A stretch of 64,000 bases of DNA from Eukaryota sp. GEM-RC1 (taxonomy: Eukaryota): assembly GCA_040285855.1 (NCBI GenBank), contig JAUFOQ010000016.1:3162001-3226000 (forward strand), read 5' to 3'. Shown here piece after piece: positions 13,336-64,000 of the stretch; positions within the stretch are counted from its first letter, which is position 1, and every line of letters starts with the position of its first letter. The notes under the pieces are model-generated. The model was not told the DNA's origin. It saw nothing but the letters and a program-made list of their open reading frames with translations, and ran no database searches. A program made the translations under genes and the position numbers.

Positions 13336-13351
13336 CTACTACTAGTAGTAG
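13336..13351. promoter_or_regulatory. 16-bp perfect palindrome in a 77-bp divergent intergenic region
   Basis: ctactactagtagtag is its own reverse complement and lies between the PP6-like ATG (13295) and the DRAP1 ATG (13373). Confidence 0.4.
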
Positions 13352-13372
13352 TCTCCTCAAACTTAAACCAAA

Positions 13373-14926: not shown

Positions 14927-15175
14927 AAAAGAGGAATTTTTCTCAACAAATGCCCACTGATCGTCTCCTATATCAATCCGTTCAACTCGTCGGGTTTCTT
15001 GTGATAGTCCTCATCATGTCCAAAATGTTCAAATCGTCAAGCAAATAGAATATCGAGAGGCCTTTCCTGACAACAACTTTTCCAGTGTCTAACATGTTCA
15101 TTTCACCTTCCATTCTTACTTCCATTTCCTGTGATCAAATACATTGATTGTTTATGTTCAAATTTATTGGTATTT

Positions 15176-15628: not shown

Positions 15629-15929
15629 TAAGCAGTATCATTCAACAATGACCTCATTTATTTAATAAATATTACCACTACATAGTTGATGAGTGATCAA
15701 AAAAGTTTGTTTTTGCAGTCAAAAGTCGAACTCTTTGTATAATTGTACAACAATTGAACCCTTATTGAGGAGTTTTTGCTTGAATTGAATTGTCTTTACA
15801 TTCTTGATGACAAGTCATGTCATGACCTCGAAAGTTCTTTTTAGCTCATAGAACACTCTGTGAAGAAAGTATTTCAGTGGTAATGAATTCTGTTTTTATT
15901 TATGTTGAGTTTTTTTAAATTGAATTAAG

Positions 15930-22084: not shown

Positions 22085-22197
22085 CTAACTAACAGACACA
22101 GTATCTAAACTATGATCCTTCTGTCCTTCACCAAACAACTTACCTAAAATTGAATTAATATATCTGTGCATTGAACGAAACAGTTCAAACGTTAACC
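22085..22197 (-). mobile_element. Very short 3' fragment of the retrotransposon family at 7051-7578
   Basis: Reverse complement closely matches 7410-7525 (ttcaatgcacagatat..ggacagaaggatcatagtttagatac). Confidence 0.7.
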
Positions 22198-25100
22198 AAG
22201 TCAACCAAAAATCAAAACTTTACACAACAATATATTAAAACGAAATCCCTGCATCAAAACTTTTTTGATCAAATCAAAGCCATGTATCTAAACTAAGGAG
22301 AGACCACAACTTTTCTGAAGTCTTGCAACAAGTCTTTCAACCAAAGTGTTTTTAACTTATGTTCTGGGTATTACAGTTTCAAATTTTTGGACAATAAATT
22401 ATCGCACAAATTACAAACAATATTACTCTGAACTTCAGTTATCAGTTACTTGTCACATTCTGGGTCAGTGTTTGTCAAAAAGGAATAATAAAAAAAGAAT
22501 AATTAATTAAAACAACAAAAAAAATGAAACACAGTACGTATTTTTCATTGATTCCGTCATCGTTTCTATCTTCCACAAATCTTTATTGTAATAAAACATC
22601 ATGGATAAACTGACAGTCCCGAGAGCAGTCCTCCTGAGCCGTGCTGCTCAATGAATACATTTTTCTTGCTTTGTTGGAGCAGGAAGGAATAAAATTATGG
22701 CAGTAGTGAGAGCTTTCCTGGGTAGCAGCATCGTGTTGCTCAACTAGACAAAAAAAAGTACCACATATGCTTTTTGGAAGTACAGGTCATGTAGAAGTCA
22801 ACAATACATTATTGCCATTTATTGTATTGCAATTATTGGCCCCATCAATTATTTTTTCGGAATCCCTGCATTGATGGATGTACTAATCATTTATCTGTTC
22901 ATCTGCTGCAATTTGTCTGAATATCAAAATCCAGAATTATTGTAGTATCGAACCGAAACCCCAACTTTTGAAAATTCGATGAATTAATGTCAACTGTTTT
23001 ATCCGTGTTACCACTTTCTGTTTGTTATACCCTTTCGGCCAACGGCCTTTGTTGTCAATCTCAGCCATAATTGGAGATCGATTCAATAGGAGGTGGCATT
23101 TTTCAATAGCGATATGTTTATCAACAACATAACATTGTACCTACGAGCAATTTCTGCAGAAGCTGCCACTTTGAATGAAGAGATTGGTTTAAATCTAAAT
23201 ATTGAACAGTGTTTCGTTATAGGAAAAGAACCTAATTTATTAACAATTCGTTCAACTAAAGTACCTTTTATTAACTATCTTTCTGATTTCTTGATTGTTT
23301 TCTATTGGTAAAAAGGAGGATGTTGTCAAAAATCTTGATGATTACTTGATTTAGATTCAACAAGAGTTGGATAAAATCAAAGTTCTTGAAATTAAAAACA
23401 CTTAAAGTTCTTCATGCTCTAAATTTGTTATTCTGGTTTTAATCAATTTGAAGGACAGATGTTCAGTTGCTTTGATTAACCAAATTCGACAGATTTATGG
23501 ATTGTTGTCCAAAGATCTTCAATGGATCACAACATTTTAGGACTTGCATTCATGATGCTGTCATAGATCAAATTCATGCAATGTGTAAGTCCTACAAAAT
23601 CGAATGTTTGAAATCAATAATTTAAAAAATAGTGATTCCGATAAAATGTGTATTTTATGTTATAAATTAAGGAAATACAAACAACTAGTACTTAAAAGAT
23701 ATTAAAAAGTGATTCTGATAAGTTATTTTGGTAAAGAACAGCTGATGTGATCGTTCCATCAGTCAAGGATGAACTAACGGCTGTTGATGCGATTACTGTG
23801 GATGTTTGCAAAAAAGGGCATTTAAGGATGCTAAAATGAAGTGTCTCCACTTGATTTTTCAGAACAATACAAGAGAAACAAATATGTTGTTCCCTTGACT
23901 ACTCTCAAACATTCTTGACATGTTGAGTACGAATTATGTCCTATTTCCATTTCAATTTATGGTCGACTTGGTAAAGAAGCTCTTTGTTTTCTCTCTGATG
24001 TTGAGATAGTTGTAAAAAAAGAATGAACAAGAAATTTGACTTTCAGTTTTGCTTGACTTGTATTGTTCATCAAAGGATTTGGCTTACATCTAGATTGAAG
24101 AGGTTTAATTTATTGCACCTTTTGAGACTATACGAGCAATTTCTGCAGAAGCTGCCACTTTGAATGAAGAGATGGGTTTAAATCTAAATATTGAAAAGTG
24201 TTTCGTTATAGGAAAAGAACCTAATTTATTAACAATTCGTTCAATTGAAGTACCTTTTATTAATTATCTTTCTGATTTCTTGATTGTTTCTTATTTTTTT
24301 TACCAAAGCAAACTTTTATGGAACAAAAACACTAAAATTCCAAAATTGTTTCTTATTGGTAAAAAGGCAAAGTTCCTGAAATTAAAAACACTTAAAGTTC
24401 TTCATGCTCTAAATTTGCTATTCTGGTTTTAATCAATTTGAAGGACATATGTTCAGTTGCTTTGATTAACCAAATTCGACACCAAAGACCTTCAATGGAA
24501 CACAACATTTTAGGACTTGCATTCATGATGCTGTCATAGATCAAATTCGTGCAATGTGTAAGTCCCACAAAATCGAATCTTTGAAATCAATAATTAAAAA
24601 ATAGTGATTCTGATAGGAGTTTTGGTAAAGAACAGCTGATGTCATGGTTCTATCAGTCAATGATGAACTAACGGCTGTTGATGCGATTACTGTGGATGTT
24701 TGCAAAAAGGGCATTTAAGGATGCTAACAATGAAGTGTCTCCACTTGATTTTTCAGAACAATACAAGAGAAACAAATATGATGTTCCCTTGACTACTCTC
24801 AAACATTCTAGACATGTTGAGTACGAATTTTGTCCTATTGCCATTTCAATTTATGTTCGACTTGGTAAAGAAGCTCTTTGTTTTCTCTCTGATGTTGAGA
24901 TAGTTGTAAAAAAGAATGACCAATAAATTGGACTTTCAGTTTTGCTTGACTTGTATTGTTCATCAAAGGATTTGGCTTACATCTAGATTGAAGAGGTTTA
25001 ATTTATTGCACCTTTTGAGACTATACGAGCAATTTCTGCAGAAGCTGCCACTTTGAATGAAGAGATGGGTTTAAATCTAAATATTGAAAAGTGTTTCGTT

Positions 25101-28100: not shown

Positions 28101-31100
28101 TGTTTCTGATTTCTTGATTGTTTCTTATTTTTTTTACCAAAGCAAACTTTTATGGAACAAAAACACTAAAATTAAAAAATTGTTTCTTATTGGTAAAGAG
28201 AAGCATGTTGTCAAAAATCTTGATGATTACTTGATTTAGATTCAACAAGAGTTGGATAAAATCAAAGTTCTTGAAATTAAAAACACTTAAAGTTCTTCAT
28301 GCTCTAAATTTGTTATTCTGGTTTTAATCAATTTGAAGGCAGAGGTTCAGTTGCTTTGATTAACCAAATTCGACAGATTTATGGATTGTTGTCCAAAAGA
28401 TCTTCAATGGATCACAACATTTTAGGACTTGCATTCATGATGCTGTCATAGATCAAATTCGTGCAATGTGTAAGTCCCACAAAATCGTATCTTTGAAATC
28501 AATAATTAAAAAATAGTGATTCTGATAAGAGTTTTGGTAAAGAACAGCTGATGTCATGGTTCTATCAGTCAATGATGAACTAACGGCTGTTGATGCGATT
28601 ACTGTGGATGTTTGCAAAACAGGGCGTTTAAGGATGCTAACAATGTCTCCACTTGATTTTTCAGAACAATACAAGAGAAACAAATATGATGTTCCCTTGA
28701 CTATTCTCAAACATTCTAGACATGTTGAGTACGAATTTTGTCCTATTGCCATTTCAATTTATGTTCGACTTGGTAAAGAAGCTCTTTGTTTTCTCTCTGA
28801 TGTTGAGATAGTTGTAAAAAAGAATGAACAAGAAATTTGACTTTCAGTTTTGCTTGACTTGTATTGTTCATCAAAGGATTTGGCTTACATCTAGATTGAA
28901 GAGGTTTAATTTATTGCACCTTTTGAGACTATACGAGCAATTTCTGCAGAAGCTGCCACTTTGAATGAAGAGATGGGTTTAAATCTAAATATTGAAAAGT
29001 GTTTCGTTATAGGAAAAGAACCTAATTTATTAACAATTCGTTCAATTGAAGTACTAGTACCTTTTATTAATTATGTTTCTGATTTCTTGATTGTTTCTTA
29101 TTTTTTTTACCAAAGCAAACTTTTATGGAACAAAAACACTAAAATTAAAAAATTGTTTCTTATTGGTAAAGAGAAGCATGTTGTCAAAAATCTTGATGAT
29201 TACTTGATTTAGATTCAACAAGAGTTGGATAAAATCAAAGTTCTTGAAATTAAAAACACTTAAAGTTCTCCATGCTCTAAATTTGTTATTCTTGGTTTTA
29301 ATCAATTTGAAGGACAGATGTTCAGTTGCTTTGATTAACCAAATTCGACAGATTTATGGATTGTTGTCCAAAGATCTTCAATGGATCACAACATTTTAGG
29401 ACTTGCATTCATGATGCTGTCATAGATCAAATTCATGCAATGTGTAAGTCCTACAAAATCGAATGTTTGAAATCAATAATTTAAAAAATAGTGATTCCGA
29501 TAAAATGTGTATTTTATGTTATAAATTAAGGAAATACAAACAACTAGTACTTAAAAGATATTAAAAAGTGATTCTGATAAGTTATTTTGGTAAAGAACAG
29601 CTGATGTGATCGTTCCATCAGTCAAGGATGAACTAACGGCTGTTGACGTGATTACTGTGGATGTTTGCAAAAGAGGGCATTTAAGGATGCTAACAATGAA
29701 GTGTCTCCACTTGATTTTTCAGAACAATACAAGAGAAACAAATATGTTGTTCCCTTGACTACTCTCAAACATTCTTGACATGTTGAGTACGAATTATGTC
29801 CTATTTCCATTTCAATTTATGGTCGACTTGGTAAAGAAGCTCTTTGTTTTCTCTCTGATGTTGAGATAGTTGTAAAAAAAGAATGAACAAGAAATTTGAC
29901 TTTCAGTTTTGCTTGACTTGTATTGTTCATCAAAGGATTTGGCTTACATCTAGATTGAAGAGGTTTAATTTATTGCACCTTTTGAGACTATACGAGCAAT
30001 TTCTGCAGAAGCTGCCACTTTGAATGAAGAGATGGGTTTAAATCTAAATATTGAAAAGTGTTTCGTTATAGGAAAAGAACCTAATTTATTAACAATTCGT
30101 TCAATTGAAGTACCTTTTATTAATTATCTTTCTGATTTCTTGATTGTTTCTTATTTTTTTTTTACCAAAGCAAACTTTTATGGAACAAAAACACTAAAAT
30201 TCCAAAATTGTTTCTTATTGGTAAAAGGCAAAGTTCCTGAAATTAAAAACACTTAAAGTTCTTCATGCTCTAAATTTGCTATTCTGGTTTTAATCAATTT
30301 GAAGGACATATGTTCAGTTGCTTTGATTAACCAAATTCGACACCAAAGACCTTCAATGGAACACAACATTTTAGGACTTGCATTCATGATGCTGTCATAG
30401 ATCAAATTCGTGCAATGTGTAAGTCCCACAAAATCGAATCTTTGAAATCAATAATTAAAAAATAGTGATTCTGATAAGAGTTTTGGTAAAGATCAGCTGA
30501 TGTCATGGTTCTATCAGTCAATGATGAACTAACGGCTGTTGATGCGATTACTGTGGATGTTTGCAAAAAAAGGGCATTTAAGGATGCTAACAATGAAGTG
30601 TCTCCACTTGATTTTTCAGAACAATACAAGAGAAACAAATATGATGTTCCCTTGACTACTCTCAAACATTCTAGACATGTTGAGTACGAATTTTGTCCTA
30701 TTGCCATTTCAATTTATGTTCGACTTGGTAAAGAAGCTCTTTGTTTTCTCTCTGATGTTGAGATAGTTGTAAAAAAAGAATGACCAAGAAATTGGACTTT
30801 CAGTTTTGCTTGACTTGTATTGTTCATCAAAGGATTTGGCTTACATCTAGATTGAAGAGGTTTAATTTATTGCACCTTTTGAGACTATACGAGCAATTTC
30901 TGCAGAAGCTGCCACTTTGAATGAAGAGATGGGTTTAAATCTAAATATTGAAAAGTGTTTCGTTATAGGAAAAGAACCTAATTTATTAACAATTCGTTCA
31001 ATTGAAGTACTAGTACCTTTTATTAATTATGTTTCTGATTTCTTGATTGTTTCTTATTTTTTTACCAAAGCAAACTTTTATGGAACAAAAACACTAAAAT

Positions 31101-36614: not shown

Positions 36615-37487
36615 AAATCGTAGCTTATATGGATGACATTTCTTTTATTGCTCCTATGTCAACTCTTCGTATTATTGCGAATCAGGCTGCTGATTTGTAT
36701 GATGCTATTGGACTTCAATTAAATGTGCAAAAATGTTTTTGATTGCCAAGGTACCTGTAACTTTAATTGTTAATTCTTTAGAGGTTCCCTTTGTGAACTA
36801 TTTATCTTCAAGCTTTAGATTTCTAGGTTGTTATCTTGGTTCATATGACAACATTGTTAAAGATCTGAATGTATATTTGGATTCAATGCGAAAAGAATTA
36901 GATCAAATTAAGGAATTACAATTGGAAAAACATCTCAAATTCTTTATGCTAAAAATTTGTTATTCAGGAAAAGTTACCCATCTGCTTCGATCTCTCCCCC
37001 CTGTACTTACCTATAACTTCTGTAGAAGCTTTAACAAAATTCGTACTGACTTTCTTGCATTTTTGTTATCAGTGGATCCTGCTGCTTTGAACAATCAAAT
37101 CTTCTCAGATCCTCATCTTGGTGGTATTGGTTTCACTTCGTCTAAATGGTGGACCAAATCTGCTTTCATTGGTGGTGGTAAGAATTTTGTCTTTGAGTTC
37201 TGTAGACGGTACCCAAGTCAAGAAAATCTTCTTGTTTCGACAAGTAGTTTTTTCTTGGTAAATTTGAGATCAGAATTGTCACTAATTTCACCTGACCTCT
37301 GGCAAACTTGTTTTCCAGCAGATATTTGTGAAATACCAGAACGATGTGTCACCTCGTTAAAATTTGCTCTTAAGAAACTCCAAAAACACCTTTTAAAACA
37401 TTTTGAATGTCTGGATTTTAAAATTCGACTTGGCTCGGCCAAAGAAAAAAATCCAGCTTTCGCAAATTTTTAATCGATTTAAAGGAC
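36615..37487 (+). mobile_element. Internal RT/thumb fragment of a near-intact RLE non-LTR retrotransposon
   Basis: IVAYMDDISFIAP..IGLQLNVQKC..FRFLGCYLG..HLLRS..HLGGIG; nearly identical to 63168-64000. Confidence 0.9.
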
Positions 37488-39825
37488 AAGTTGTTTTCCT
37501 ATAACGAAACATTTTTCAATATTTAGATTTAAACCAATCTCTTCATTCAAAGTGTCAGCTTCTGCAGAAATTGCTCGTATAGTCTCAAAAGGTGCAATAA
37601 AGGAAACGCCCCAATCTAGATGTAAGCCAAATTCTTTGATGAACATTACAAGTCAAGCAAAACTGAAAGTCAAATGTCTTGTTCATTCTTTTTTTACAAC
37701 TATCTCAACATCAGAGAAAACAAAGAGCTTCTTTACCAAGTCGAACATAAATTGAAATGGCAATAGGACATAATTCGTACTCAACATGTCTAGAATGTTT
37801 GAGAGTAGTCAAGGGAACATCATATTTGTTTCTCTTGTATTGTTCTGAAAAATCAAGTGGAGACATTGTTAGCATCCTTAAATGCCCTTTTTGCAAACAT
37901 TCACAGTAATCGCATCAACAGCCGTTAGTTCGTCATTGACTGATGGAACCATGACATTAGCCGTTCTTTACCAAAACTATTATCAGAATCACTATTTGTG
38001 AATTATTGATTTCAAAGATTCGATTTTGTGGGACTTACACATTGTACGAATTTGATCTATGACAGCATCATGAATGCAAGTCCTAAAATGTTGTGATCCA
38101 TTGAAGGTCTTTGGTGTCGAATTTGGTTAATCAAAGCAACTGAACATATGTCCTTCAAATTGATTAAAACCAGAATAGCAAATTTAGAGCATGAAGAACT
38201 TTAAGTGTTTTTAATTTCAGGAACTTTGCCTTTTTACCAATAAGAAACAATTTTGGAATTTTAGTGTTTTTGTTCCATAAAAGTTTGCTTTGGAAAAAAA
38301 AATAAGAAACAGTCAAGAAATCAGAAAGATAATTAATAAAAGGTACTTCAATTGAACGAATTGTTAATAAATTAGGTTCTTTTCCTATAACGAAACACTT
38401 TTCAAAATTTAGATTTAAACCCATCTCTTCATTCAAAGTGGCAGCTTCTGCAGAAATTGCTCGTATAGTCTCAAAAGGTGCAATAAATTAAACCTATTCA
38501 ATCTAGATGTAAGCCAAATCCTTTGATGAACAATACAAGTCAAGCAAAACTGAAAGTCCGATTTCTTGTTCATTCTTTTTTTACAACTATCTCAACATCA
38601 GAGAGAAAACAAAGAGCTTCTTTACCAAGTCGAACATAAATTGAAATGGCAATAGGACAAATTCGTACTCAACATGTCTAGAATGTTTGAGAGTAGTCAA
38701 GGGAACATCATATTTGTTTCTCTTGTATTGTTCTGAAAAATCAAGTGGAGACACTTCATTGTTAGCATCCTTAAACGCCCTGTTTTGCAAACATCCACAG
38801 TAATCGCATCAACAGCCGTTAGTTCATCATTGACTGATAGAACCATGACATCAGCTGTTCTTTACCAAAATTCTTATCAGAATCACTATTCTTTAAATCA
38901 TTGATTTCAAAGATTCGATTTTGTAGGACTTACACATTGTACGAATTTGATCTATGACAGCATCATGAATGCAAGTCCTAAAATGTTCTGATCCATTGAA
39001 GATCTTTGGACAACAATCCCGAATTTGGTCGAATTTGGTTAATCAAAGCAACTGAACATGTGTCCTTCAAATTGATTAAAACCAGAATAACAAATTTAGA
39101 GCATGAAGAACTTTAAGTGTTTTTAATTTCAAGAACTTTGATTTTATCCAACTCTTGTTGAATCTAAATCAAGTAATCATCAAGATTTTTGACAACATGC
39201 TTCTCTTTACCAATAAGAAACAATTTTTTAATTTTAGTGTTTTTGTTCCATAAAAGTTTGCTTTGGTAAAAAAATAAGAAACAATCAAGAAATCAGAAAC
39301 ATAATTAATAAAAGGTACTAGTACTTCAATTGAACGAATTGTTAATAAATTAGGTTCTTTTCCTATAACGAAACACTTTTCAATATTTAGATTTAAACCC
39401 ATCTCTTCATTCAAAGTGGCAGCTTCTGCAGAAATTGCTCGTATAGTCTCAAAAGGTGCAATAAATTAAACCTCTTCAATCTAGATGTAAGCCAAATCCT
39501 TTGATGAACATTACAAGTCAAGCAAAACTGAAAGTCAAATGTCTTGTTCATTCTTTTTTACAACTATCTCAACATCAGAGAAAACAAAGAGCTTCTTTAC
39601 CAAGTCGAACATAAATTGAAATGGTAATAGGACATAATTCGTACTCAACATGTCTAGAATGTTTGAGAGTAGTCAAGGGAACATCATATTTGTTTCTCTT
39701 GTATTGTTCTGAAAAATCAAGTGGAGACATTGTTAGCATCCTTAAATGCCCTTTTTGCAAACATTCACAGTAATCGCATCAACAGCCGTTAGTTCGTCAT
39801 TGACTGATGGAACCATGACATCAGC
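37488..39825 (-). repeat. Inverted block of about 2.5 monomers
   Basis: Monomer sequence and its ORFs are on the minus strand; sharp switch back to plus at ...catcagc|acgaattatg. Confidence 0.95.
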
Positions 39826-42800
39826 ACGAATTATGTCCTTTTGCCATTTCAATTTATGGTCGACTTGGTAAAGAAGCTCTTTGTTTTCTCTAATGTTGAG
39901 ATAGTTGTTAAAAAGAATGAACAAGAAATTTGACTTTCAGTTTTGCTTGACTTGTATTGTTCATCAAAGGATTTGGCTTACATCTAGATTGAAGACGTTT
40001 CCTTTATTGTACCTTTTGAGACTATACGAGCAATTTCTGCAGAAGCTGACACTTTGAATGAAGAGATTGGTTTAAATCTAAATATTGAAAAATGTTTCGT
40101 TATAGGAAAACAACTTAATTTATTAACAATTCGTTCAACTGAAGTACCTTTTATTAATTATCTTCCTGATTTCTTTATTTTTTCTTATTTTTTTTCCAAA
40201 GCAAACTTTTATGGAACAAAAACACTAATATTACAAAATTGTTTCTTATTGGTAAAAAGGCAAAGTTCTGGAAATTAACAACTCTTAAAGTTCTTCATGC
40301 TCTAAATTTGCTATTCTGGTTTTAATCAATTTGAAGGACATATGTTCAGTTGCTTTGATTAACCAAATTCGACCAAATTCGGGATTGTTGTCCAAAGATC
40401 TTCAATGGATCAGAACATTTTAGGACTTGCATTCGTGATGCTGTCATAGATCAAATTCGTACAATGTGTAAGTCCCACAAAATCGAATCTTTGAAATCGA
40501 TAATTCAAAAATAGTGATTCTGATAAGAGTTTTGGTAAAGAACGGCTGATGTCATGGTTCCATCAGTCAATGACGAACTAACGGCTGTTGATGCGATTAC
40601 TGTGGATGTTTGCAAAAAAAGGGCATTTAAGGATGCTAACAATGAAGTGTCTCCACTTGATTTTTTCAGTACAATACAAGAGAAACAAATATGATGTTCC
40701 CTTGACTACTCTCAAACATTCTAGACATGTTGAGTACGAATTATGTCCTTTGCCATTTCAATTTATGGTCGACTTGGTAAAGAAGCTCTTTGTTTTCTCT
40801 CTGATGTTGAGATAGTTGTAAAAAAAGAATGAACAAGAAATTTGACTTTCAGTTTTGCTTGACTTGTATTGTTCATCAAAGGATTTGGCTTACATCTAGA
40901 TTGAAGAGGTTTAATTTATTGCACCTTTTGAGACTATACGAGCAATTTCTGCAGAAGCTGCCACTTTGAATGAAGAGATGGGTTTAAATCTAAATTTTGA
41001 AAAGTGTTTCGTTATAGGAAAAGAACCTAATTTATTAACAATTCGTTCAATTGAAGTACCTTTTATTAATTATCTTTCTGATTTCTTGATTGTTTCTTAT
41101 TTTTTTTTACCAAAGCAAACTTTTATGGAACAAAAACACTAAAAATTCCAAAATTGTTTCTTATTGGTAAAAAGGCAAAGTTCCTGAAATTAAAAACACT
41201 TAAAGTTCTTCATGCTCTAAATTTGCTATTCTGGTTTTAATCAATTTGAAGGACATATGTTCAGTTGCTTTGATTAACCAAATTCGACACCAAAGACCTT
41301 CAATGGATCACAACATTTTAGGACTTGCATTCATGATGCTGTCATAGATCAAATTCGTACAATGTGTAAGTCCCACAAAATCGAATCTTTGAAATCAATA
41401 ATTCACAAATAGTGATTCTGATAATAGTTTTGGTAAAGAACGGCTGATGTCATGGTTCCATCAGTCAATGACGAACTAACGGCTGTTGATGCGATTACTG
41501 TGAATGTTTGCAAAAAGGGCATTTAAGGATGCTAACAATGTCTCCACTTGATTTTTCAGAACAATACAAGAGAAACAAATATGATGTTCCCTTGACTACT
41601 CTCAAACATTCTAGACATGTTGAGTACGAATTATGTCCTATTGCCATTTCAATTTATGTTCGACTTGGTAAAGAAGCTCTTTGTTTTCTCTGATGTTGAG
41701 ATAGTTGTAAAAAAAGAATGAACAAGACATTTGACTTTCAGTTTTGCTTGACTTGTAATGTTCATCAAAGAATTTGGCTTACATCTAGATTGGGGCGTTT
41801 CCTTTATTGCACCTTTTGAGACTATACGAGCAATTTCTGCAGAAGCTGACACTTTGAATGAAGAGATTGGTTTAAATCTAAATATTGAAAAATGTTTCGT
41901 TATAGGAAAACAACTTAATTTATTAACAATTCGTTCAACTGAAGTACCTTTTATTAATTATCTTCCTGATTTCTTTATTTTTTCTTATTTTTTTCCAAAG
42001 CAAACTTTTATGGAACAAAAACACTAATATTACAAAATTGTTTCTTATTGGTAAAAAGGCAAAGTTCTGGAAATTAACAACTCTTAAAGTTCTTCATGCT
42101 CTAAATTTGCTATTCTGGTTTTAATCAATTTGAAGGACACATGTTCAGTTGCTTTGATTAACCAAATTCGACCAAATTCGGGATTGTTGTCCAAAGATCT
42201 TCAATGGATCAGAACATTTTAGGACTTGCATTCATGATGCTGTCATAGATCAAATTCGTACAATGTGTAAGTCCCACAAAATCGAATCTTTGAAATCGAT
42301 AATTCAAAAATAGTGATTCTGATAAGAGTTTTGGTAAAGAACGGCTGATGTCATGGTTCCATCAGTCAATGACGAACTAACGGCTGTTGATGCGATTACT
42401 GTGGATGTTTGCAAAAAAAGGGCATTTAAGGATGCTAACAATGAAGTGTCTCCACTTGATTTTTTCAGTACAATACAAGAGAAACAAATATGATGTTCCC
42501 TTGACTACTCTCAAACATTCTAGACATGTTGAGTACGAATTATGTCCTTTTGCCATTTCAATTTATGGTCGACTTGGTAAAGAAGCTCTTTGTTTTCTCT
42601 CTGATGTTGAGATAGTTGTAAAAAAAGAATGAACAAGAAATTTGACTTTCAGTTTTGCTTGACTTGTATTGTTCATCAAAGGATTTGGCTTACATCTAGA
42701 TTGAAGAGGTTTAATTTATTGCACCTTTTGAGACTATACGAGCAATTTCTGCAGAAGCTGCCACTTTGAATGAAGAGATGGGTTTAAATCTAAATTTTGA

Positions 42801-45800
42801 AAAGTGTTTCGTTATAGGAAAAGAACCTAATTTATTAACAATTCGTTCAATTGAAGTACCTTTTATTAATTATCTTTCTGATTTCTTGATTGTTTCTTAT
42901 TTTTTTTTTACCAAAGCAAACTTTTATGGAACAAAAACACTAAAATTCCAAAATTGTTTCTTATTGGTAAAAAGGCAAAGTTCCTGAAATTAAAAACACT
43001 TAAAGTTCTTCATGCTCTAAATTTGCTATTCTGGTTTTAATCAATTTGAAGGACATATGTTCAGTTGCTTTGATTAACCAAATTCGACACCAAAGACCTT
43101 CAATGGATCACAACATTTTAGGACTTGCATTCATGATGCTGTCATAGATCAAATTCGTACAATGTGTAAGTCCCACAAAATCGAATCTTTGAAATCAATA
43201 ATTCACAAATAGTGATTCTGATAATAGTTTTGGTAAAGAACGGCTGATGTCATGGTTCCATCAGTCAATGACGAACTAACGGCTGTTGATGCGATTACTG
43301 TGAATGTTTGCAAAAAGGGCATTTAAGGATGCTAACAATGTCTCCACTTGATTTTTCAGAACAATACAAGAGAAACAAATATGATGTTCCCTTGACTACT
43401 CTCAAACATTCTAGACATGTTGAGTACGAATTATGTCCTATTGCCATTTCAATTTATGTTCGACTTGGTAAAGAAGCTCTTTGTTTTCTCTGATGTTGAG
43501 ATAGTTGTAAAAAAAGAATGAACAAGACATTTGACTTTCAGTTTTGCTTGACTTGTAATGTTCATCAAAGAATTTGGCTTACATCTAGATTGGGGCGTTT
43601 CCTTTATTGCACCTTTTGAGACTATACGAGCAATTTCTGCAGAAGCTGACACTTTGAATGAAGAGATTGGTTTAAATCTAAATATTGAAAAATGTTTCGT
43701 TATAGGAAAACAACTTAATTTATTAACAATTCGTTCAACTGAAGTACCTTTTATTAATTATCTTCCTGATTTCTTTATTTTTTCTTATTTTTTTCCAAAC
43801 CAAACTTTTATGGAACAAAAACACTAATATTACAAAATTGTTTCTTATTGGTAAAAAGGCAAAGTTCTGGAAATTAACAACTCTTAAAGTTCTTCATGCT
43901 CTAAATTTGCTATTCTGGTTTTAATCAATTTGAAGGACACATGTTCAGTTGCTTTGATTAACCAAATTCGACCAAATTCGGGATTGTTGTCCAAAAGATC
44001 TTCAATGGATCAGAACATTTTAGGACTTGCATTCATGATGCTGTCATAGATCAAATTCGTACAATGTGTAAGTCCCACAAAATCGAATCTTTGAAATCGA
44101 TAATTCAAAAATAGTGATTCTGATAAGAGTTTTGGTAAAGAACGGCTGATGTCATGGTTCCATTAGTCAATGACGAACTAACGGCTGTTGATGCGATTAC
44201 TGTGGATGTTTGCAAAAAAAGGGCATTTAAGGATGCTAACAATGAAGTGTCTCCACTTGATTTTTCAGTACAATACAAGAGAAACAAATATGATGTTCCC
44301 TTGACTACTCTCAAACATTCTAGACATGTTGAGTACGAATTATGTCCTTTTGCCATTTCAATTTATGGTCGACTTGGTAAAGAAGCTCTTTGTTTTCTCT
44401 GATGTTGAGATAGTTGTTAAAAAAGAATGAACAAGACATTTGACTTTCAGTTTTGCTTGACTTGTATTGTTCATCAAAGGATTTGGCTTACATCTAGATT
44501 GAAGAGGTTTAATTTATTGCACATTTTGAGACTAAGCAATTTCTGCAGAAGCTGCCACTTTGAATGAAGAGATGGGTTTATATCTAAATATTGAAAAGTG
44601 TTTCGGTATAGGAACAGAACCTAATTTATTAACAATTCGTTCAATTGAAGTACCTTTTATTAATTATCTTTCTGATTTCTTGATTGTTTCTTATTTTTTT
44701 TTACCAAAGCAAACTTTTATGGAACAAAAACACTAAAATTCCAAAATTGTTTCTTATTGGTAAAAAGGCAAAGTTCCTGAAATTAAAAACACTTAAAGTT
44801 CTTCATGCTCTAAATTTGCTATTCTGGTTTTAATCAATTTGAAGGACATATGTTCAGTTGCTTTGATTAACCAAATTCGACACCAAAGACCTTCAATGGA
44901 ACACAACATTTTAGGACTTGCATTCATGATGCTGTCATAGATCAAATTCGTGCAATGTGTAAGTCCCACAAAATCGAATCTTTGAAATCAATAATTAAAA
45001 AATAGTGATTCTGATAAGAGTTTTGGTAAAGAACAGCTGATGTCATGGTTCCATCGGTCAATGATGAACTAACGGCTGTTGATGCGATTACTGTGGATGT
45101 TTGCAAAACAGGGCGTTTAAGGATGCTAACAATGAAGTGTCTCCACTTGATTTTTCAGAACAATACAAGAGAAACAAATATGATGTTCCCTTGACTACTC
45201 TCAAACATTCTAGACATGTTGAGTACGAATTTTGTCCTATTGCCATTTCAATTTATGTTCGACTTGGTAAAGAAGCTCTTTGTTTTCTCTCTGATGTTGA
45301 GATAGTTGTAAAAAAAGAATGAACAAGAAATTTGACTTTCAGTTTTGCTTGACTTGTATTGTTCATCAAAGGATTTGGCTTACATCTAGATTGAAGAGGT
45401 TTAATTTATTGCACCTTTTGAGACTATACGAGCAATTTCTGCAGAAGCTGCCACTTTGAATGAAGAGATGGGTTTAAATCTAAATATTGAAAAGTGTTTC
45501 GTTATAGGAAAAGAACCTAATTTATTAACAATTCGTTCAATTGAAGTACTAGTACCTTTTATTAATTATGTTTCTGATTTCTTGATTGTTTCTTATTTTT
45601 TTACCAAAGCAAACTTTTATGGAACAAAAACACTAAAATTAAAAAATTGTTTCTTATTGGTAAAGAGAAGCATGTTGTCAAAAATCTTGATGATTACTTG
45701 ATTTAGATTCAACAAGAGTTGGATAAAATCAAAGTTCTTGAAATTAAAAACACTTAAAGTTCTTCATGCTCTAAATTTGTTATTCTGGTTTTAATCAATT

Positions 45801-48800
45801 TGAAGGACACATGTTCAGTTGCTTTGATTAACCAAATTCGACCAAATTCGGGATTGTTGTCCAAAGATCTTCAATGGATCAGAACATTTTAGGACTTGCA
45901 TTCATGATGCTGTCATAGATCAAATTCGTACAATGTGTAAGTCCTACAAAATCGAATCTTTGAAATCAATGATTTAAAGAATAGTGATTCTGATAAGAAT
46001 TTTGGTAAAGAACAGCTGATGTCATGGTTCTATCAGTCAATGATGAACTAACGGCTGTTGATGCGATTACTGTGGATGTTTGCAAAACAGGGCGTTTAAG
46101 GATGCTAACAATGAAGTGTCTCCACTTGATTTTTCAGAACAATACAAGAGAAACAAATATGATGTTCCCTTGACTACTCTCAAACATTCTAGACATGTTG
46201 AGTACGAATTTTGTCCTATTGCCATTTCAATTTATGTTCGACTTGGTAAAGAAGCTCTTTGTTTTCTCTCTGATGTTGAGATAGTTGTAAAAAAAGAATG
46301 AACAAGAAATCGGACTTTCAGTTTTGCTTGACTTGTATTGTTCATCAAAGGATTTGGCTTACATCTAGATTGAAGAGGTTTAATTTATTGCACCTTTTGA
46401 GACTATACGAGCAATTTCTGCAGAAGCTGCCACTTTGAATGAAGAGATGGGTTTAAATCTAAATTTTGAAAAGTGTTTCGTTATAGGAAAAGAACCTAAT
46501 TTATTAACAATTCGTTCAATTGAAGTACCTTTTATTAATTATCTTTCTGATTTCTTGATTGTTTCTTATTTTTTTTTACCAAAGCAAACTTTTATGGAAC
46601 AAAAACACTAAAATTCCAAATTTGTTTCTTATTGGTAAAAAGGCAAAGTTCCTGAAATTAAAAACACTTAAAGTTCTTCATGCTCTAAATTTGCTATTCT
46701 GGTTTTAATCAATTTGAAGGACATATGTTCAGTTGCTTTGATTAACCAAATTCGACACCAAAGACCTTCAATGGATCACAACATTTTAGGACTTGCATTC
46801 ATGATGCTGTCATAGATCAAATTCGTACAATGTGTAAGTCCCACAAAATCGAATCTTTGAAATCAATAATTCACAAATAGTGATTCTGATAATAGTTTTG
46901 GTAAAGAACGGCTGATGTCATGGTTCCATCAGTCAATGACGAACTAACGGCTGTTGATGCGATTACTGTGAATGTTTGCAAAAAGGGCATTTAAGGATGC
47001 TAACAATGTCTCCACTTGATTTTTCAGAACAATACAAGAGAAACAAATATGATGTTCCCTTGACTACTCTCAAACATTCTAGACATGTTGAGTACGAATT
47101 ATGTCCTATTGCCATTTCAATTTATGTTCGACTTGGTAAAGAAGCTCTTTGTTTTCTCTGATGTTGAGATAGTTGTAAAAAAAGAATGAACAAGACATTT
47201 GACTTTCAGTTTTGCTTGACTTGTAATGTTCATCAAAGAATTTGGCTTACATCTAGATTGGGGCGTTTCCTTTATTGCACCTTTTGAGACTATACGAGCA
47301 ATTTCTGCAGAAGCTGACACTTTGAATGAAGAGATTGGTTTAAATCTAAATATTGAAAAATGTTTCGTTATAGGAAAACAACTTAATTTATTAACAATTC
47401 GTTCAACTGAAGTACCTTTTATTAATTATCTTCCTGATTTCTTTATTTTTTCTTATTTTTTTCCAAAGCAAACTTTTATGGAACAAAAACACTAATATTA
47501 CAAAATTGTTTCTTATTGGTAAAAAGGCAAAGTTCTGGAAATTAACAACTCTTAAAGTTCTTCATGCTCTAAATTTGCTATTCTGGTTTTAATCAATTTG
47601 AAGGACACATGTTCAGTTGCTTTGATTAACCAAATTCGACCAAATTCGGGATTGTTGTCCAAAGATCTTCAATGGATCAGAACATTTTAGGACTTGCATT
47701 CATGATGCTGTCATAGATCAAATTCGTACAATGTGTAAGTCCCACAAAATCGAATCTTTGAAATCGATAATTCAAAAATAGTGATTCTGATAAGAGTTTT
47801 GGTAAAGAACGGCTGATGTCATGGTTCCATTAGTCAATGACGAACTAACGGCTGTTGATGCGATTACTGTGGATGTTTGCAAAAAAAGGGCATTTAAGGA
47901 TGCTAACAATGAAGTGTCTCCACTTGATTTTTCAGTACAATACAAGAGAAACAAATATGATGTTCCCTTGACTACTCTCAAACATTCTAGACATGTTGAG
48001 TACGAATTATGTCCTTTTGCCATTTCAATTTATGGTCGACTTGGTAAAGAAGCTCTTTGTTTTCTCTGATGTTGAGATAGTTGTTAAAAAGAATGAACAA
48101 GACATTTGACTTTCAGTTTTGCTTGACTTGTATTGTTCATCAAAGGATTTGGCTTACATCTAGATTGAAGAGGTTTAATTTATTGCACATTTTGAGACTA
48201 AGCAATTTCTGCAGAAGCTGCCACTTTGAATGAAGAGATGGGTTTATATCTAAATATTGAAAAGTGTTTCGGTATAGGAAAAGAACCTAATTTATTAACA
48301 ATTCGTTCAATTGAAGTACCTTTTATTAATTATCTTTCTGATTTCTTGATTGTTTCTTATTTTTTTACCAAAGCAAACTTTTATGGAACAAAAACACTAA
48401 AATTCCAAAATTGTTTCTTATTGGTAAAAAGGCAAAGTTCCTGAAATTAAAAACACTTAAAGTTCTTCATGCTCTAAATTTGCTATTCTGGTTTTAATCA
48501 ATTTGAAGGACATATGTTCAGTTGCTTTGATTAACCAAATTCGACACCAAAGACCTTCAATGGAACACAACATTTTAGGACTTGCATTCATGATGCTGTC
48601 ATAGATCAAATTCGTGCAATGTGTAAGTCCCACAAAATCGAATCTTTGAAATCAATAATTAAAAAATAGTGATTCTGATAAGAGTTTTGGTAAAGAACAG
48701 CTGATGTCATGGTTCCATCGGTCAATGATGAACTAACGGCTGTTGATGCGATTACTGTGAATGTTTGCAAAAAGGGCATTTAAGGATGCTAACAATGTCT

Positions 48801-51526
48801 CCACTTGATTTTTCAGAACAATACAAGAGAAACAAATATGATGTTCCCTTGACTACTCTCAAACATTCTAGACATGTTGAGTACGAATTATGTCCTATTG
48901 CCATTTCAATTTATGTTCGACTTGGTAAAGAAGCTCTTTGTTTTCTCTGATGTTGAGATAGTTGTAAAAAAAGAATGAACAAGACATTTGACTTTCAGTT
49001 TTGCTTGACTTGTAATGTTCATCAAAGAATTTGGCTTACATCTAGATTGGGGCGTTTCCTTTATTGCACCTTTTGAGACTATACGAGCAATTTCTGCAGA
49101 AGCTGACACTTTGAATGAAGAGATTGGTTTAAATCTAAATATTGAAAAATGTTTCGTTATAGGAAAACAACTTAATTTATTAACAATTCGTTCAACTGAA
49201 GTACCTTTTATTAATTATCTTCCTGATTTCTTTATTTTTTCTTATTTTTTTCCAAAGCAAACTTTTATGGAACAAAAACACTAATATTACAAAATTGTTT
49301 CTTATTGGTAAAAAGGCAAAGTTCTGGAAATTAACAACTCTTAAAGTTCTTCATGCTCTAAATTTGCTATTCTGGTTTTAATCAATTTGAAGGACACATG
49401 TTCAGTTGCTTTGATTAACCAAATTCGACCAAATTCGGGATTGTTGTCCAAAGATCTTCAATGGATCAGAACATTTTAGGACTTGCATTCATGATGCTGT
49501 CATAGATCAAATTCGTACAATGTGTAAGTCCCACAAAATCGAATCTTTGAAATCGATAATTCAAAAATAGTGATTCTGATAAGAGTTTTGGTAAAGAACG
49601 GCTGATGTCATGGTTCCATTAGTCAATGACGAACTAACGGCTGTTGATGCGATTACTGTGGATGTTTGCAAAAAGGGCATTTAAGGATGCTAACAATGAA
49701 GTGTCTCCACTTGATTTTTCAGTACAATACAAGAGAAACAAATATGATGTTCCCTTGACTACTCTCAAACATTCTAGACATGTTGAGTACGAATTATGTC
49801 CTTTGCCATTTCAATTTATGGTCGACTTGGTAAAGAAGCTCTTTGTTTTCTCTGATGTTGAGATAGTTGTTAAAAAAGAATGAACAAGACATTTGACTTT
49901 CAGTTTTGCTTGACTTGTATTGTTCATCAAAGGATTTGGCTTACATCTAGATTGAAGAGGTTTAATTTATTGCACATTTTGAGACTAAGCAATTTCTGCA
50001 GAAGCTGCCACTTTGAATGAAGAGATGGGTTTATATCTAAATATTGAAAAGTGTTTCGGTATAGGAAAAGAACCTAATTTATTAACAATTCGTTCAATTG
50101 AAGTACCTTTTATTAATTATCTTTCTGATTTCTTGATTGTTTCTTATTTTTTTTTTACCAAAGCAAACTTTTATGGAACAAAAACACTAAAATTCCAAAA
50201 TTGTTTCTTATTGGTAAAAAGGCAAAGTTCCTGAAATTAAAAACACTTAAAGTTCTTCATGCTCTAAATTTGCTATTCTGGTTTTAATCAATTTGAAGGA
50301 CATATGTTCAGTTGCTTTGATTAACCAAATTCGACACCAAAGACCTTCAATGGAACACAACATTTTAGGACTTGCATTCATGATGCTGTCATAGATCAAA
50401 TTCGTGCAATGTGTAAGTCCCACAAAATCGAATCTTTGAAATCAATAATTAAAAAATAGTGATTCTGATAAGAGTTTTGGTAAAGAACAGCTGATGTCAT
50501 GGTTCCATCGGTCAATGATGAACTAACGGCTGTTGATGCGATTACTGTGGATGTTTGCAAAAGAGGGCATTTAAGGATGCTAACAATGAAGTGTCTCCAC
50601 TTGATTTTTCAGAACAATACAAGAGAAACAAATATGATGTTCCCTTGACTACTCTCAAACATTCTAGACATGTTGAGTACGAATTTTGTCCTATTGCCAT
50701 TTCAATTTATGTTCGACTTGGTAAAGAAGCTCTTTGTTTTCTCTCTGATGTTGAGATAGTTGTAAAAAAAGAATGAACAAGAAATTTGACTTTCAGTTTT
50801 GCTTGACTTGTATTGTTCATCAAAGGATTTGGCTTACATCTAGATTGAAGAGGTTTAATTTATTGCACCTTTTGAGACTATACGAGCAATTTCTGCAGAA
50901 GCTGCCACTTTGAATGAAGAGATGGGTTTAAATCTAAATATTGAAAAGTGTTTCGTTATAGGAAAAAAACCTAATTTATTAACAATTCGTTCAATTGAAG
51001 TACTAGTACCTTTTATTAATTATGTTTCTGATTTCTTGATTGTTTCTTATTTTTTTTTACCAAAGCAAACTTTTATGGAACAAAAACACTAAAATTAAAA
51101 AATTGTTTCTTATTGGTAAAGAGAAGCATGTTGTCAAAAATCTTGATGATTACTTGATTTAGATTCAACAAGAGTTGGATAAAATCAAAGTTCTTGAAAT
51201 TAAAAACACTTAAAGTTCTTCATGCTCTAAATTTGCTATTCTGGTTTTAATCAATTTGAAGGGCAGATGTTCAGTTGCTTTGATTAACCAAATTCGACAG
51301 ATTTATGGATTGTTGTCCAAAGATCTTCAATGGATCACAACATTTTAGGACTTGCATTCATGATGCTGTCATAGATCAAATTCATGCAATGTGTAAGTCC
51401 TACAAAATCGAATGTTTGAAATCAATAATTTAAAAAATAGTGATTCTGACAAGAGTTTTGGTAAAGAACAGCTGATGTCATGGTTCTATCAGTCAATGAT
51501 GAACTAACGGCTGTTGATGCGATTAC

Positions 51527-51838
51527 TAGGGGTGTACAATACTCGAGTCGGACTCGAGTCGGACTCAGCTATTGTAAGTCTGAGTCTGAGTCCGACTCAC
51601 CGTATCTGAGTCTGAGTCTGAGTCGAACTCAACTAGTCTGAGTCTGAGTCCGACTCACCGTATCTGAGTCTGAGTCTGAGTCCCACTCATAATATCTGAG
51701 TCTGAGTCTGAGCTTGAGTTTCACATCATAAACAATCTTTATTAAGTACATTATTAACCATTATTATTCTACAGTCCACCGCTTAAGACAGACACATGCT
51801 TCAACATTTAAATCTGTTAGACGTGATCTGTCAGGAGC
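51527..51838 (-). mobile_element. hAT transposon 3' end (terminus, subterminal repeats, transposase C-terminus), copy 1
   Basis: taggggtgtacaatactcgag terminus and tctgag repeats; essentially identical to 56651-56962. Confidence 0.85.
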
Positions 51839-52771
51839 AAATTTGTAATACGAACTCACAGAGCCTGAATTCCATATTCAGCATAAGTAGTCAGAACCCA
51901 CTCCCTCTTCTCAGCTGCAAACTGATGATTAACGGAATTCCGGTTCAAGGTTTTTAGGACAGTGGAGCAACCATGTCCGTAATCACACAAGACCCGGCTA
52001 CGAAGCGTAACATGACGCCTGTCAACAAAAATGTTCGCTTCACATCCGCAAACAATGTTGAGTCCCGGTCCTTGGGTAGCGCCCAGGGCATCTTGACCTT
52101 CGATACCAGTAGCATCGCGTACCTGACACATGTGGATAAGGCATTACCAATAATACCTGGATCCAACAAACTATTATTGGGAATTGATCTGATGAAACAG
52201 TTAGGACTACTGACCGAAGACGGACTAGTCATCCCGATTGACAGTGCCATCCTGGCCACCGTGAACGATGAGTCCGAGTTCGACTCACGCATCATACAAC
52301 CTTTCCACAGCCCCTCTATCATTAACGTAGACTTTAATAAACATGTTTTTGATTCCGGTTATACAATACTTTTAGACGATGACACCAGAGCCGAGAGCTT
52401 ATTGAACCTGTTTCAGAAGTTTTCTTCAATATTCTTAACAGCTCCTCACAAAGATTGCATCGATTGTCCTCCCATGGCGATCGACTTCTACAACGAGGAG
52501 TCCACTGTGAGACGGAAACCTCGACGGCTCAATCCAATGAAACAGCAGATTGCCGAACAGATTTTCGATGAACTTGTCCGTCAGGACCTTGCTGAGTTAA
52601 CAACTCCCAATGGACAGTTCAGTTCACCGGTAGTACTGGTGGTCTATCCCGATCAACGTAAGCCCCGCCTTACGGGTGACTTCAGTGGTTCCGATGGAAT
52701 TAACGCATTGACCCGAGTTGTCGAACCGAATCTTCCAATTCTAAAAGTAATAGACAACAACACTACAGTGT
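51839..52771 (+). mobile_element. Ty3/gypsy LTR retrotransposon pol fragment (protease + RT N-terminus), copy 1
   Basis: INGIPVQGF*DSGATMSVI and LLLGIDLM protease motifs, then PRRL..FSSPVVLV..PRLTGDF..INALT..NLP. Confidence 0.85.
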
Positions 52772-56650: not shown

Positions 56651-58069
56651 TAGGGGTGTACAATACTCGAGTCGGACTCGAGTCGGACTCAGCTATTGTA
56701 AGTCTGAGTCTGAGTCCGACTCACCGTATCTGAGTCTGAGTCTGAGTCGAACTCAACTAGTCTGAGTCTGAGTCCGACTCACCGTATCTGAGTCTGAGTC
56801 TGAGTCCCACTCATAATATCTGAGTCTGAGTCTGAGCTTGAGTTTCACATCATAAACAATCTTTATTAAGTACATTATTAACCATTATTATTCTACTGTC
56901 CACCGCTTAAGACAGACACATGCTTCAACATTTAAATCTGTTAGACGTGATCTGTCAGGAGCCACAACTCTTCCAGCTTGTGAAAAAAAAGACTCAGAAG
57001 CTACATTAGAGGCTTGAACTGATAGTGCAATTCGAGATGTTCTTGCAAGTGTAGGGAACTTTGATTCATTAAGTTTCCACCACATCAAAGGATCTTGGTC
57101 CATTTCAATCAGTCCATCACTGAGATAGATATCAAGTTCATCTAACTCAGTTAATTATTCTTCGTTACGAACACATACTTTTATTCTTACAAGCTCTTTC
57201 ATTAGAGATTTTCCTTGAGGGTTGTTCTGCGATTCTTCTGTACTTACTGCAAGACTTCCAACTTTGGATTCAATAAACTCCCTCATTGAACCCTTCAGCA
57301 TCTCTTCATTCTCAATGTAACAACTTGGTAGGAAGTTCTGATTGTTTTTGAATCTAGGATCCAACACAAGACCGACATATCCTGCAAAATCGAACACACT
57401 TCTGTCACTTCGACGTCCACTGATATACTGCGTAAACTTTTCCAACACTTTTGATGCTACGGCAGAAATAAAACCAGATTCACGTCCTTCTACAGGATCG
57501 CAAATTACTTTAAGCTTTTCCCATAATAAATTGAACAAAGTTAAACCTACGGACACAGTAACGGTAGACCTTGAAGAACAAATTTCAGTTAACTCATAGA
57601 AATCCGATAACAAGAAGATCAACAGCTGATGAAGATCTTCTCTTTCAGAAATGGTGAGTTTCAAATGCATCAACTTGTTGTCATTGAAAATCATATGATC
57701 TACAATGTCTATCAATTGGCTGTACCTTTCTAGCATCATGAAGGACGAATTCCATCTTGTTGAAACATCAACAATCATGGAGGTGGTTTCAAGTCCTTCC
57801 AACTTGCATCTATCAGAAATACGTTCCCTCAAGTCTGAGCTTCTGTGTGATCTGACACAAAACTCTCTAATTTTTTTGACGAAAAAACAACCCTGATCTT
57901 CAAGAAAATTTGGAGTACTTCTGAATAATTGGTTGAGGGCAAGGTGAAGAACATGCGCCAAACATCTTCTATGATAAACAATACCAGGTGTACCCAATAA
58001 TTCCACAAATTTTGTTAAATCAATGTTTGAGACATTGTCTGAAGTCACAGAAAAAACACATCATTGATG
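56651..58069 (-). mobile_element. 5'-truncated hAT DNA transposon with transposase pseudogene
   Basis: TSDN, RCLAHVLHL, DVSTRWNS, LDPRFK and dimerisation domain DPLMWWK..FPTLAR..ASNVASESFFS. One in-frame TAA at 57155-57157. Only one terminus is present. Confidence 0.92.
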
Positions 58070-62869: not shown

Positions 62870-64000
62870 CCTTTCTTCTGATGTTTTCTTCAATGCGGTT
62901 GAAAATAATTGCATTTTCAATTTGGATTTTAAGAATGCTTTTAATTCTGTTAAACGATCTGCCATTTGTTCTGAATTGGAAAAGAGTTTTCCAGAATTAG
63001 GTACCTTTTTCATTGTTTTTATGGTCACTCTTCTGACTTAGTTTTTAATTCATTTGTTCTTAATTCTGTTTCTGGTGTTAAACAAGGAGATCCTCTTGGT
63101 CCCTTCTTTTTTTGTTTGGCTATTCATCCAATCCTGAAAAAACTCAAAGAAGAACATGCAGACTTAGAAATCGTAGCTTATATGGATGACATTTCTTTTA
63201 TTGCTCCTATGTCAACTCTTCGTATTATTGCGAATCAGGCTGCTGATTTGTACGATGCTATTGGACTTCAATTAAATGTGCAAAAATGTTTTTTGATTGC
63301 CAAGGTACCTGTAACTTTAATTGTTAATTCTTTAGAGGTTCCCTTTGTGAACTATTTATCTTCAAGCTTTAGATTTCTAGGTTGTTATCTTGGTTCACAT
63401 GACAACATTGTTAAAGATCTGAATGTATATTTGGATTCAATGCGAAAAGAATTAGATCAAATTAAGGAATTACAATTGGAAAAACATCTCAAATTCTTTA
63501 TGCTAAAAATTTGTTATTCAGGAAAAGTTACCCATCTGCTTCGATCTCTCCCCCCTGTACTTACCTATAACTTCTGTAGAAGCTTTAACAAAATTCGTAC
63601 TGACTTTCTTGCATTTTTGTTATCAGTGGATCCTGCTGCTTTGAACAATCACATCTTCTCAGATCCTCATCTTGGTGGTATTGGTTTCACTTCGTCTAAA
63701 TGGTGGACCAAATCTGCTTTCATTGGTGGTGGTAAGAATTTTGTCTTTGAGTTCTGTAGACGGTACCCAAGTCAAGAAAATCTTCTTGTTTCGACAAGTA
63801 GTTTTTTCTTGGTAAATTTGAGATCAGAATTGTCACTAATTTCACCTGACCTCTGGCAAACTTGTTTTCCAGCAGATATTTGTGAAATTCCAGAACGATG
63901 TGTCACCTCGTTAAAATTTGCTCTTAAGAAACTCCAAAAACACCTTTTAAAACATTTTGAATGTCTGGATTTTAAAATTCGACTTGGCTCGGCCAAAGAA
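62870..64000 (+). mobile_element. 5'-truncated, near-intact RLE non-LTR retrotransposon RT (runs off the window)
   Basis: LDFKNAFNSV, GVKQGDPLGPFFF, AYMDD, GLQLNVQKC, FLG motifs; a single frameshift in a T-run at ~63010. Confidence 0.92.

Follow-up and report, generated by a model that had tools for sequence, protein, structure and literature searches.

The window analyzed, i.e., the whole stretch of 64,000 nucleotides from Eukaryota sp. GEM-RC1, an anaerobic eukaryote that is single-celled, begins with ~21 kb of gene-dense eukaryotic DNA in which fragments of RLE elements are scattered. The following genes are found there:

1-21345: host genes, compact, on long stop-free frames
2-802: DSP-like (labelled by eye)
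2329-4832: TPR/ARM-like (labelled by eye)
9640-10437: Yip1-like (labelled by eye)
10739-12196: PTEN-like (checked with Pfam)
12384-13469: PPP phosphatase (checked with Pfam)
13937-15010: acyltransferase-like (labelled by eye)
17334-18398: SRP72-like (checked with Pfam)

Decayed 3' fragments of RLE elements belonging to at least two other families were noticed between the host genes (5300-8800, 15900-16900, and 22088-22213), and at ~16610 one of these fragments seems to adjoin another. Searches with Rfam and ARAGORN yielded no RNA or tRNA gene in the window, and the repeated unit described below therefore contains no Rfam-type RNA target gene.

An interrupted tandem array of retrotransposon-derived monomers, delimited by matches to the unit 24058-24950, extends on the plus strand from 23142 to 62869. 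It spans 39.7 kb (at least 39 kb, the right end being located outside the window, which stops within an inserted element of a sister RLE family) and is built from a single broken retrotransposon piece repeated head to tail about 40 times, amounting to 34,968 bp of monomer DNA (~35.0 kb) in the window. The joints at which one unit ends and the next begins, called wrap joints here, number 37 (34 on the plus strand and three on the minus strand). The 31 complete units are 882-1059 bp long and show pairwise identities of 93.4-100% (mean 96.9%); deletions of 62 and 16 bp and a duplication of 6 bp define their subtypes. The GC content of the monomer DNA (measured on 24058-36438) is 31.5%, as compared with 37% in the gene region. 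The array was not reported by TRF because the longest period allowed (500) was shorter than the unit.

The monomer is derived from a non-LTR retrotransposon, of which it represents the 3' half; the motifs suggest that this element was RLE-encoding. It has the following organization:

24068..24072 and again 24961-24965, plus strand: wrap joint between the RLE end and the RT start, with five unassigned bases, placed by alignment with the parent
24073..24427, plus strand: part 1, remains of a decayed RT that begin at K-D-L / A-Y-M-D-D, include the thumb, and end at I-C-Y-S-G (P0067 residues 179-300), by alignment
24283..24357, strand not assigned: 49-bp insert (24296-24344) starting with a T run and flanked by copies of a 13-mer, recognized by comparing units
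24427..24429, plus strand (25388/25390 in the next unit): deletion 1 joint, from which parent residues 301-467 are gone (167 codons, ~500 bp of thumb/linker), by alignment with the parent
24429..24507, plus strand: part 2, a retained pre-knuckle island of 32 codons (parent residues 468-499), by alignment
24507..24511, plus strand: deletion 2 joint, from which ~36 codons including the CCHC-type zinc knuckle are gone (P0005 residues 604-639)
24509..24960, plus strand: part 3, post-knuckle F-R-T-C-I-H-D-A-V and the RLE region up to parent R-I-V (P0052 residue 146 of 188)

The natural unit thus runs from 24073 (parent RT K179) to 24960 (parent RLE V146) and is followed by the 5-base joint, giving a period of 893. 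The original prediction, which located a fused RT-to-endonuclease unit with its junctions at 24070..24970, is borne out by a homology far beyond chance: tblastn against one unit gave E-values of 9e-30 with the parent protein P0067 and 4e-47 with the parent protein P0052. The prediction envisaged one deletion leading from the thumb to the post-knuckle region: the loss and its endpoints stand, but two deletions are present, with the island retained between them. The size of deletion 2 was determined on P0005 and on the fragment 16015-16122 of the window; judging from the protein, a T-x-R-like repeat would be expected to flank this deletion on its two sides. When aligned with P0005, a relative of 838 aa that is nearly complete, the unit corresponds to residues 290-403, 571-603, and 640 to ~790. 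The stretch of the parent RT that was kept gave 39 tblastn matches inside the array, while none was obtained there with the parent's first 178 residues, its last 42 residues, the linker that was deleted, or the knuckle; nor was any match to these last 42 codons found elsewhere in the window, where a query of 42 residues had no positive control.

At the wrap joint, 24067 is the last base of the RLE match and 24073 the first of the RT match (K-D-L, then A-Y), which leaves the five bases of the joint. The RLE end meets the RT seven parent residues ahead of YMDD; should the K-D-L match be due to chance, the interval becomes 24068-24090. The decayed YMDD can be aligned in two ways, 6 nt apart, with GCT TAC ATC read as A-Y-M (protein alignment) or TAG ATT GAA GAG read as Y-M-D-D (DNA alignment). 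The motif is indeed decayed, as had been noted previously, but the intact RT with which it was compared (36623, 63176) belongs to the sister family. Part 1 at 24073..24427 carries stops and frameshifts and lacks the 62-bp piece present in the long units. With its stops, its frameshifts, its two deletions, and its missing 3' end (the parent's last 42 codons and the tail), the monomer has no intact ORF, no 3' UTR, and no tail. The 49-bp insert (47-52 bp, depending on the unit) is present in 35 of the 36 units covering the site and missing from the unit at the left edge of the array and from the parent RT. The 13-mer copies surrounding it can be read as a duplication of the target-site type, and what was inserted may be either a scrap of RLE in inverted orientation or a retro-insert with an A tail; searches for the source of this insert and of a 63-bp insert in the edge unit did not find any (best E-values 0.21 and 0.075, respectively).

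When the RT peptide of the monomer (58 aa) was used as a query, four matches 75-87% identical to it were obtained among 19 candidates (P0065-P0068). The RLE peptide (137 residues) gave four matches among six candidates, two of which are encoded in the window and two of which are named; one of the named ones is a cluster of 22 members, and the 15 members listed fall on contigs of seven different sizes. Dispersed copies of the parent family, showing 83-87% identity in the RT stretch, are annotated in Eukaryota sp. GEM-RC1. The parent ORFs P0066 and P0067 retain the linker, and P0067 is 56% identical to P0005. Pfam RVT_1 was matched on the sister RT and on P0005/P0006. The best matches of P0005 among solved structures are R2 proteins (E 1.9e-11), the PDB matches spanning the RT only, and the parent is a non-LTR element whose nearest counterpart among them is R2. 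In P0005/P0052, the pattern C-x-C...H...C followed by R-A-D...D-V...K-x-x-K-Y was recognized by eye in a region matching no Pfam family; based on the definition of these motifs, we take it to be a zinc knuckle followed by a putative PD-(D/E)xK-like endonuclease (RLE). The RLE-encoding non-LTR clades described are CRE, R2, R4, NeSL, and HERO (PMC4640811).

The sister family shows 66% protein identity with the parent. Its RT (62975-64000) gave 43 matches among 2891 candidates of 600-2000 aa, 40 of them named from Eukaryota sp. TZLM1-RC or TZLM3-RCL; identity is ~45-55% for the best-scoring matches. In several proteins from a related species (P0001-P0004, P0007, P0012, P0016, P0022, and P0039), the order of RT and RLE is permuted or repeated, suggesting either that tandem or nested copies may be frequent in this family or that the gene models may be mis-spliced. 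A self-targeting site was considered in view of a breakpoint near residue 787 common to three related proteins and was rejected, since the alignment with the parent continues to ~796; the gene models concerned may also be mis-spliced.

All the joints are invariant wherever they are covered: the wrap joint in 37/37 cases, deletion 1 in 38/38, and deletion 2 in 39/39, one of the latter being partial because a unit restarts there. Neither a target duplication nor a tail was detected at any of the 37 wrap joints, and the longest run of A or T between positions -30 and +50 is four in every case. The units also have stops and frameshifts in common. Comparison of the 31 units in two mapped frames gave 25 distinct single-base variants, eight of which affect codon position 1, 11 position 2, and six position 3, and three are synonymous; nothing in the variants indicates that they passed through a coding element, and the substitutions are neutral. 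That truncated copies were retrotransposed serially into one site is a reading to which we give next to no credence: the head-to-tail orientation of the units is what it would predict, but the identical 5' and 3' ends at all the joints, together with the lack of poly(A), exclude it, and the loss of the 3' end, the private insert shared by the units, and the absence of any synonymous bias point in the same direction. The claims that all the units have the same junctions, that the RLE end rejoins YxDD without any 3' UTR or poly(A), and that one founder was amplified as DNA are upheld here, and neither differing junctions nor individual TSDs or poly(A) tails, which would have spoken against the original prediction, were seen at the 37 wraps. 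The element was likely to have been already dead before the array grew.

The internal structure of the array bears on the way in which it expanded. Self-comparison brought to light three block duplications, with periods of 2.6, 5.5, and 5.9 kb and identities of 98.6-99.2%, along with other rearrangements:

23294-27227 = 29152-33073: block duplication, 98.7%
40261-46079 = 45730-51535: block duplication, 98.6%
50225-54400 = 52772-56962: block duplication, 99.2%, including the inserted transposable elements
23142..24067, plus strand: edge unit, which begins 58 bases inside the monomer and adjoins unrelated DNA
28859..29917, plus strand: recombinant unit with a long-type head and an edge-type tail, marking the duplication 23294-27227 = 29152-33073
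37488..39825, minus strand: inverted block of ~2.5 monomers, 99.0% identical to 45036-47384
39952..50807, plus strand: dimeric higher-order stretch of 12 units, with 98-99% identity when the lag is even and 95.7-95.8% when it is odd

No dimer period was found in the lag identities of the 13 units starting at 24058. In the four-gamete test, 270 of the 1953 pairs formed by the 63 informative sites failed, and the failures increase with the distance (4.7% under 50 bp and 17.9% over 500 bp); conflicts of this kind can also stem from recurrent mutation or chimeric assembly. Units at array edges escape homogenization. The edge unit lacks the 49-bp insert, carries the private 63-bp insert between 14-mer repeats (23631-23721), shows a mean identity of 95.6% with the other units, and has 23 positions at which it departs from the majority of the array. 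The idea that it might be closer to the parent failed when matching residues were tallied (136/173, tied with five other units), and it is regarded as the oldest unit because of the insert it lacks and of a few residues.

Since the array has a higher-order structure and contains recombinant units, unequal exchange between monomers is favored as the process responsible for its growth, and is likely to have been so. Unequal exchange is known to build higher-order repeats and to spread one junction through an array (PMC5932611). Unequal crossing-over and conversion would have spread the lineage carrying the 49-bp insert through all the units apart from the sheltered edge unit, and the same exchange would have built the dimers and the multi-kb blocks. 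We consider it quite probable that the whole array is a satellite made from a doubly deleted fragment fused end to start, which grew by unequal exchange after the death of the element. The original prediction had left rolling circle and unequal exchange on a par: amplification by exchange is preferred as far as growth is concerned, and a circle is conceivable for the seeding alone.

The rolling-circle mechanism, in which a circle of 0.9-1 kb would have been excised, copied into a concatemer, and re-inserted, giving most of the array in one step, has been proposed for tandems of transposable elements (PMC5932611) and accounts for an end-to-start joint that is single and invariant, as well as for a left edge lying mid-monomer on unrelated DNA. 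The lineages are up to 6.6% apart, however, they alternate as dimers or make up blocks of several monomers, recombinants occur among them, and the insert found in all 35 other units is absent from the edge unit; one burst is therefore insufficient, the circle would have been a seed at most, and we hold amplification by this means to be improbable. The length and the order of the array could in part be artefacts of the assembly, given that some units are 100% identical, that close to three copies of the 2563-bp block are present with 99.2% identity, and that differences in homopolymer length between units are frequent. Of the 32 rows, however, 29 differ in sequence and group into coherent lineages, which makes this very doubtful, and distinct insertions and an inversion would not be expected from an artefact; the copy number and some blocks could nevertheless be erroneous. 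It is also fairly improbable, and more so than a burst from a circle, that a non-autonomous copy with deletions landed within or next to another one, in the manner of Cnl1 or R1, and that exchange between the two then amplified the internal segment they had in common, without the tail. The sister RLE family was in fact inserted twice in the array in the same orientation, several of the 43 related proteins read RLE-then-RT (P0007, P0012, P0022, and P0039, although splicing of the gene models may explain this order), and Cnl1 is described as inserting into itself (PMC9942834); but both founders would need to have had the same two large deletions, stops, and frameshifts, no dispersed deleted copy was seen, the parent ORFs found being those with the linker, and the joint has neither a target duplication nor a tail.

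As regards the seeding, under the favored scheme of a dead fragment expanded by unequal exchange, a genomic copy would have lost its linker and its knuckle by DNA deletion and then decayed, and one break-repair event would have joined the RLE end to the RT, giving the first dimer. Duplication in place is the most likely route to this dimer, with about an even chance of being correct; excision and re-insertion of a circle is possible but clearly less probable, and a deletion across a nested pair is unlikely. The left edge opens 58 bases inside the monomer on DNA without any detectable RT homology: with the family HMM, the best domain to the left of the edge unit had an E-value of 0.55 and lay mostly on the unit itself, and Pfam searches in six frames gave a single weak, unrelated match. 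A likeness of this flank to YMDD or to a gypsy RT that had been seen by eye was dropped. The mid-monomer edge counts against duplication in place, which requires a later loss, while a re-inserted circle predicts such an edge. A later loss in the left flank is plausible, and scraps of another decayed element are present there (22088-22213).

The array would subsequently have gathered insertions (the sister RLE family twice, a hAT, and a gypsy-like element), one of which was duplicated along with it:

36615..37487, plus strand: fragment of the sister RLE family that begins at I-V-A-Y-M-D-D and extends to the pre-knuckle linker (99.4% identity with 63168-64000)
51527..52770, strand not assigned: hAT-like terminus carrying subterminal GAGTCT repeats, together with a Ty3/gypsy-like protease-RT fragment; both recur, along with monomer DNA, at 54089-55334 (period 2563)
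56651..58069, minus strand: truncated hAT-like transposon with a transposase fragment at 57155-58060 (Pfam hAT-like RNase H, E 0.0019, below the cut-off)
62870..64000, plus strand: young 5'-truncated copy of the sister RLE element inside a monomer, running off the window

The sister RLE family was inserted after the array had formed. Its fragment at 36615-37487 has lost its 3' part at the inversion and shows a 2-base microhomology at its 5' joint. The 5' joints of both sister copies lie at ACAA(A/T)-TC-like monomer sequences, which, with only two cases, may reflect chance or a target preference. The fragment at 36615-37487 starts at approximately the counterpart of the monomer RT start and ends at the counterpart of the right side of deletion 1, a coincidence of positions. 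The Ty3/gypsy-like label of the fragment at 51527..52770 is our assumption based on motifs, Pfam having given no match. A hAT-like end occurs three times at one and the same monomer position, followed twice by the gypsy-like fragment and once by the transposase, and no second hAT end or LTR was noticed in 51527-58069. These three ends probably correspond to one insertion copied along with the array. After the hAT and gypsy insertions, the monomer resumes a few bases from deletion joints (52772, 55335, and 58070); this concerns two of ~9 breakpoints examined by eye and is probably due to chance.

The long head-to-tail array, the dispersed homology with transposable elements, and the amplification at the DNA level make this array a satellite DNA derived from a transposable element. 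The process leading from transposable elements to satellites is known in plants and animals, and the array is a clear but ordinary case. The Athila-derived arrays described in Rosa (bioRxiv 10.64898/2026.09.17.752431) are likewise composed of kilobase monomers from one retrotransposon repeated over tens of kb, with insertions copied by host recombination; they originate from an LTR element, however, whereas the GEM-RC1 array comes from a non-LTR RLE element in a protist host, and binding of centromeric histone has been demonstrated in Rosa. The group of LINE/CR1-derived satellites, which includes the chicken HinfI and Cen repeats, the cetacean common satellite, PROsat, maize CRM1TR, and potato Sobo (PMC9659126, PMC6947457), is described as having monomers that hold part of a retrotransposon ORF and were amplified as DNA. 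The GEM-RC1 monomer differs from these in being nearly all coding relic, with three blocks in the parental order and no 3' UTR.

Among tandem arrays of non-LTR elements, the Drosophila R1 array and the internal-to-internal tandems of transposable elements reported (PMC5932611) resemble the present array in their head-to-tail arrangement, internal deletions, and nested transposable elements, and the R1 array has also expanded by unequal exchange with identical junctions. The R1 units are near full length and are separated by a 33-nt target duplication, while the GEM-RC1 array has neither a target duplication nor an intact end. The nested subtelomeric Cnl1 arrays of Cryptococcus are similarly tandem, non-LTR, and in one orientation, with insertions of related elements, but they are described as growing through retrotransposition that occurs repeatedly, and they contain full-length copies as well as copies truncated to varying extents at the 5' end (PMC9942834). 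Unlike those of Cnl1, the units of the GEM-RC1 array all have fixed ends and lack the 3' end. The GilM/GilT arrays of Giardia are also tandem non-LTR arrays in one orientation which have grown by repeated retrotransposition. The features of a self-inserting array (a kept 3' end, a varying 5' truncation, and a target duplication at the joint) were not found here, and the array is therefore neither self-inserting like Cnl1 nor an R1-type tandem. In the literature searched on metamonad satellites, on centromeric retrotransposons of Giardia and other diplomonads, and on RLE tandem arrays, which included few subscription papers, no such array is described; nor is it in the part of bioRxiv 10.1101/870949 that was available, and no description of satellites or centromeres was found in this literature for Skoliomonas-like metamonads. 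The labels GEM-RC1, under which the closest named relatives of the monomer are found, TZLM1-RC, and TZLM3-RCL probably designate Skoliomonas strains. Skoliomonas are free-living metamonads, the assemblies of which are reported to be 28-55% repetitive, and the character string 'centromer' does not occur in the main text of that source (PMC11316075). Among metagenome contigs, the exact junction pattern had no match, and the parent RLE protein had 84 pattern matches, with no confirmed relatives.

Most probably, the array encodes no functional product and represents passive repeat DNA. All four array-type ORFs found are encoded in the window and none is named from elsewhere, which is a weak sign that the array may be confined to a single locus. 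Its length of at least 39 kb, its AT-richness, its higher-order repeats, its colonization by transposable elements, and its sharp border with the genes are compatible with a centromeric role. It is nonetheless rather unlikely that it forms the centromere or pericentromere of its chromosome, which would then be a regional metamonad centromere made of a dead RLE fragment and colonized by a living sister family. If this were the case, the satellite-retrotransposon cycle seen in plants and animals would also operate in a deep-branching protist lineage, and the array would provide a sequence handle on metamonad centromeres. The birth of the satellite is unusually legible at this locus, where the parent family, the three founding joints, the edge unit left behind, and higher-order repeats in the course of formation are all present. 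ORFs of 90-94 aa located in the monomers after the R-A-D motif (24664-24950 and homologous places) have been annotated as the predicted proteins P0045, P0046, P0063, and P0064; these 'hypothetical proteins' are relics and not genes, and in practice the short ones annotated in the array should be counted as such.
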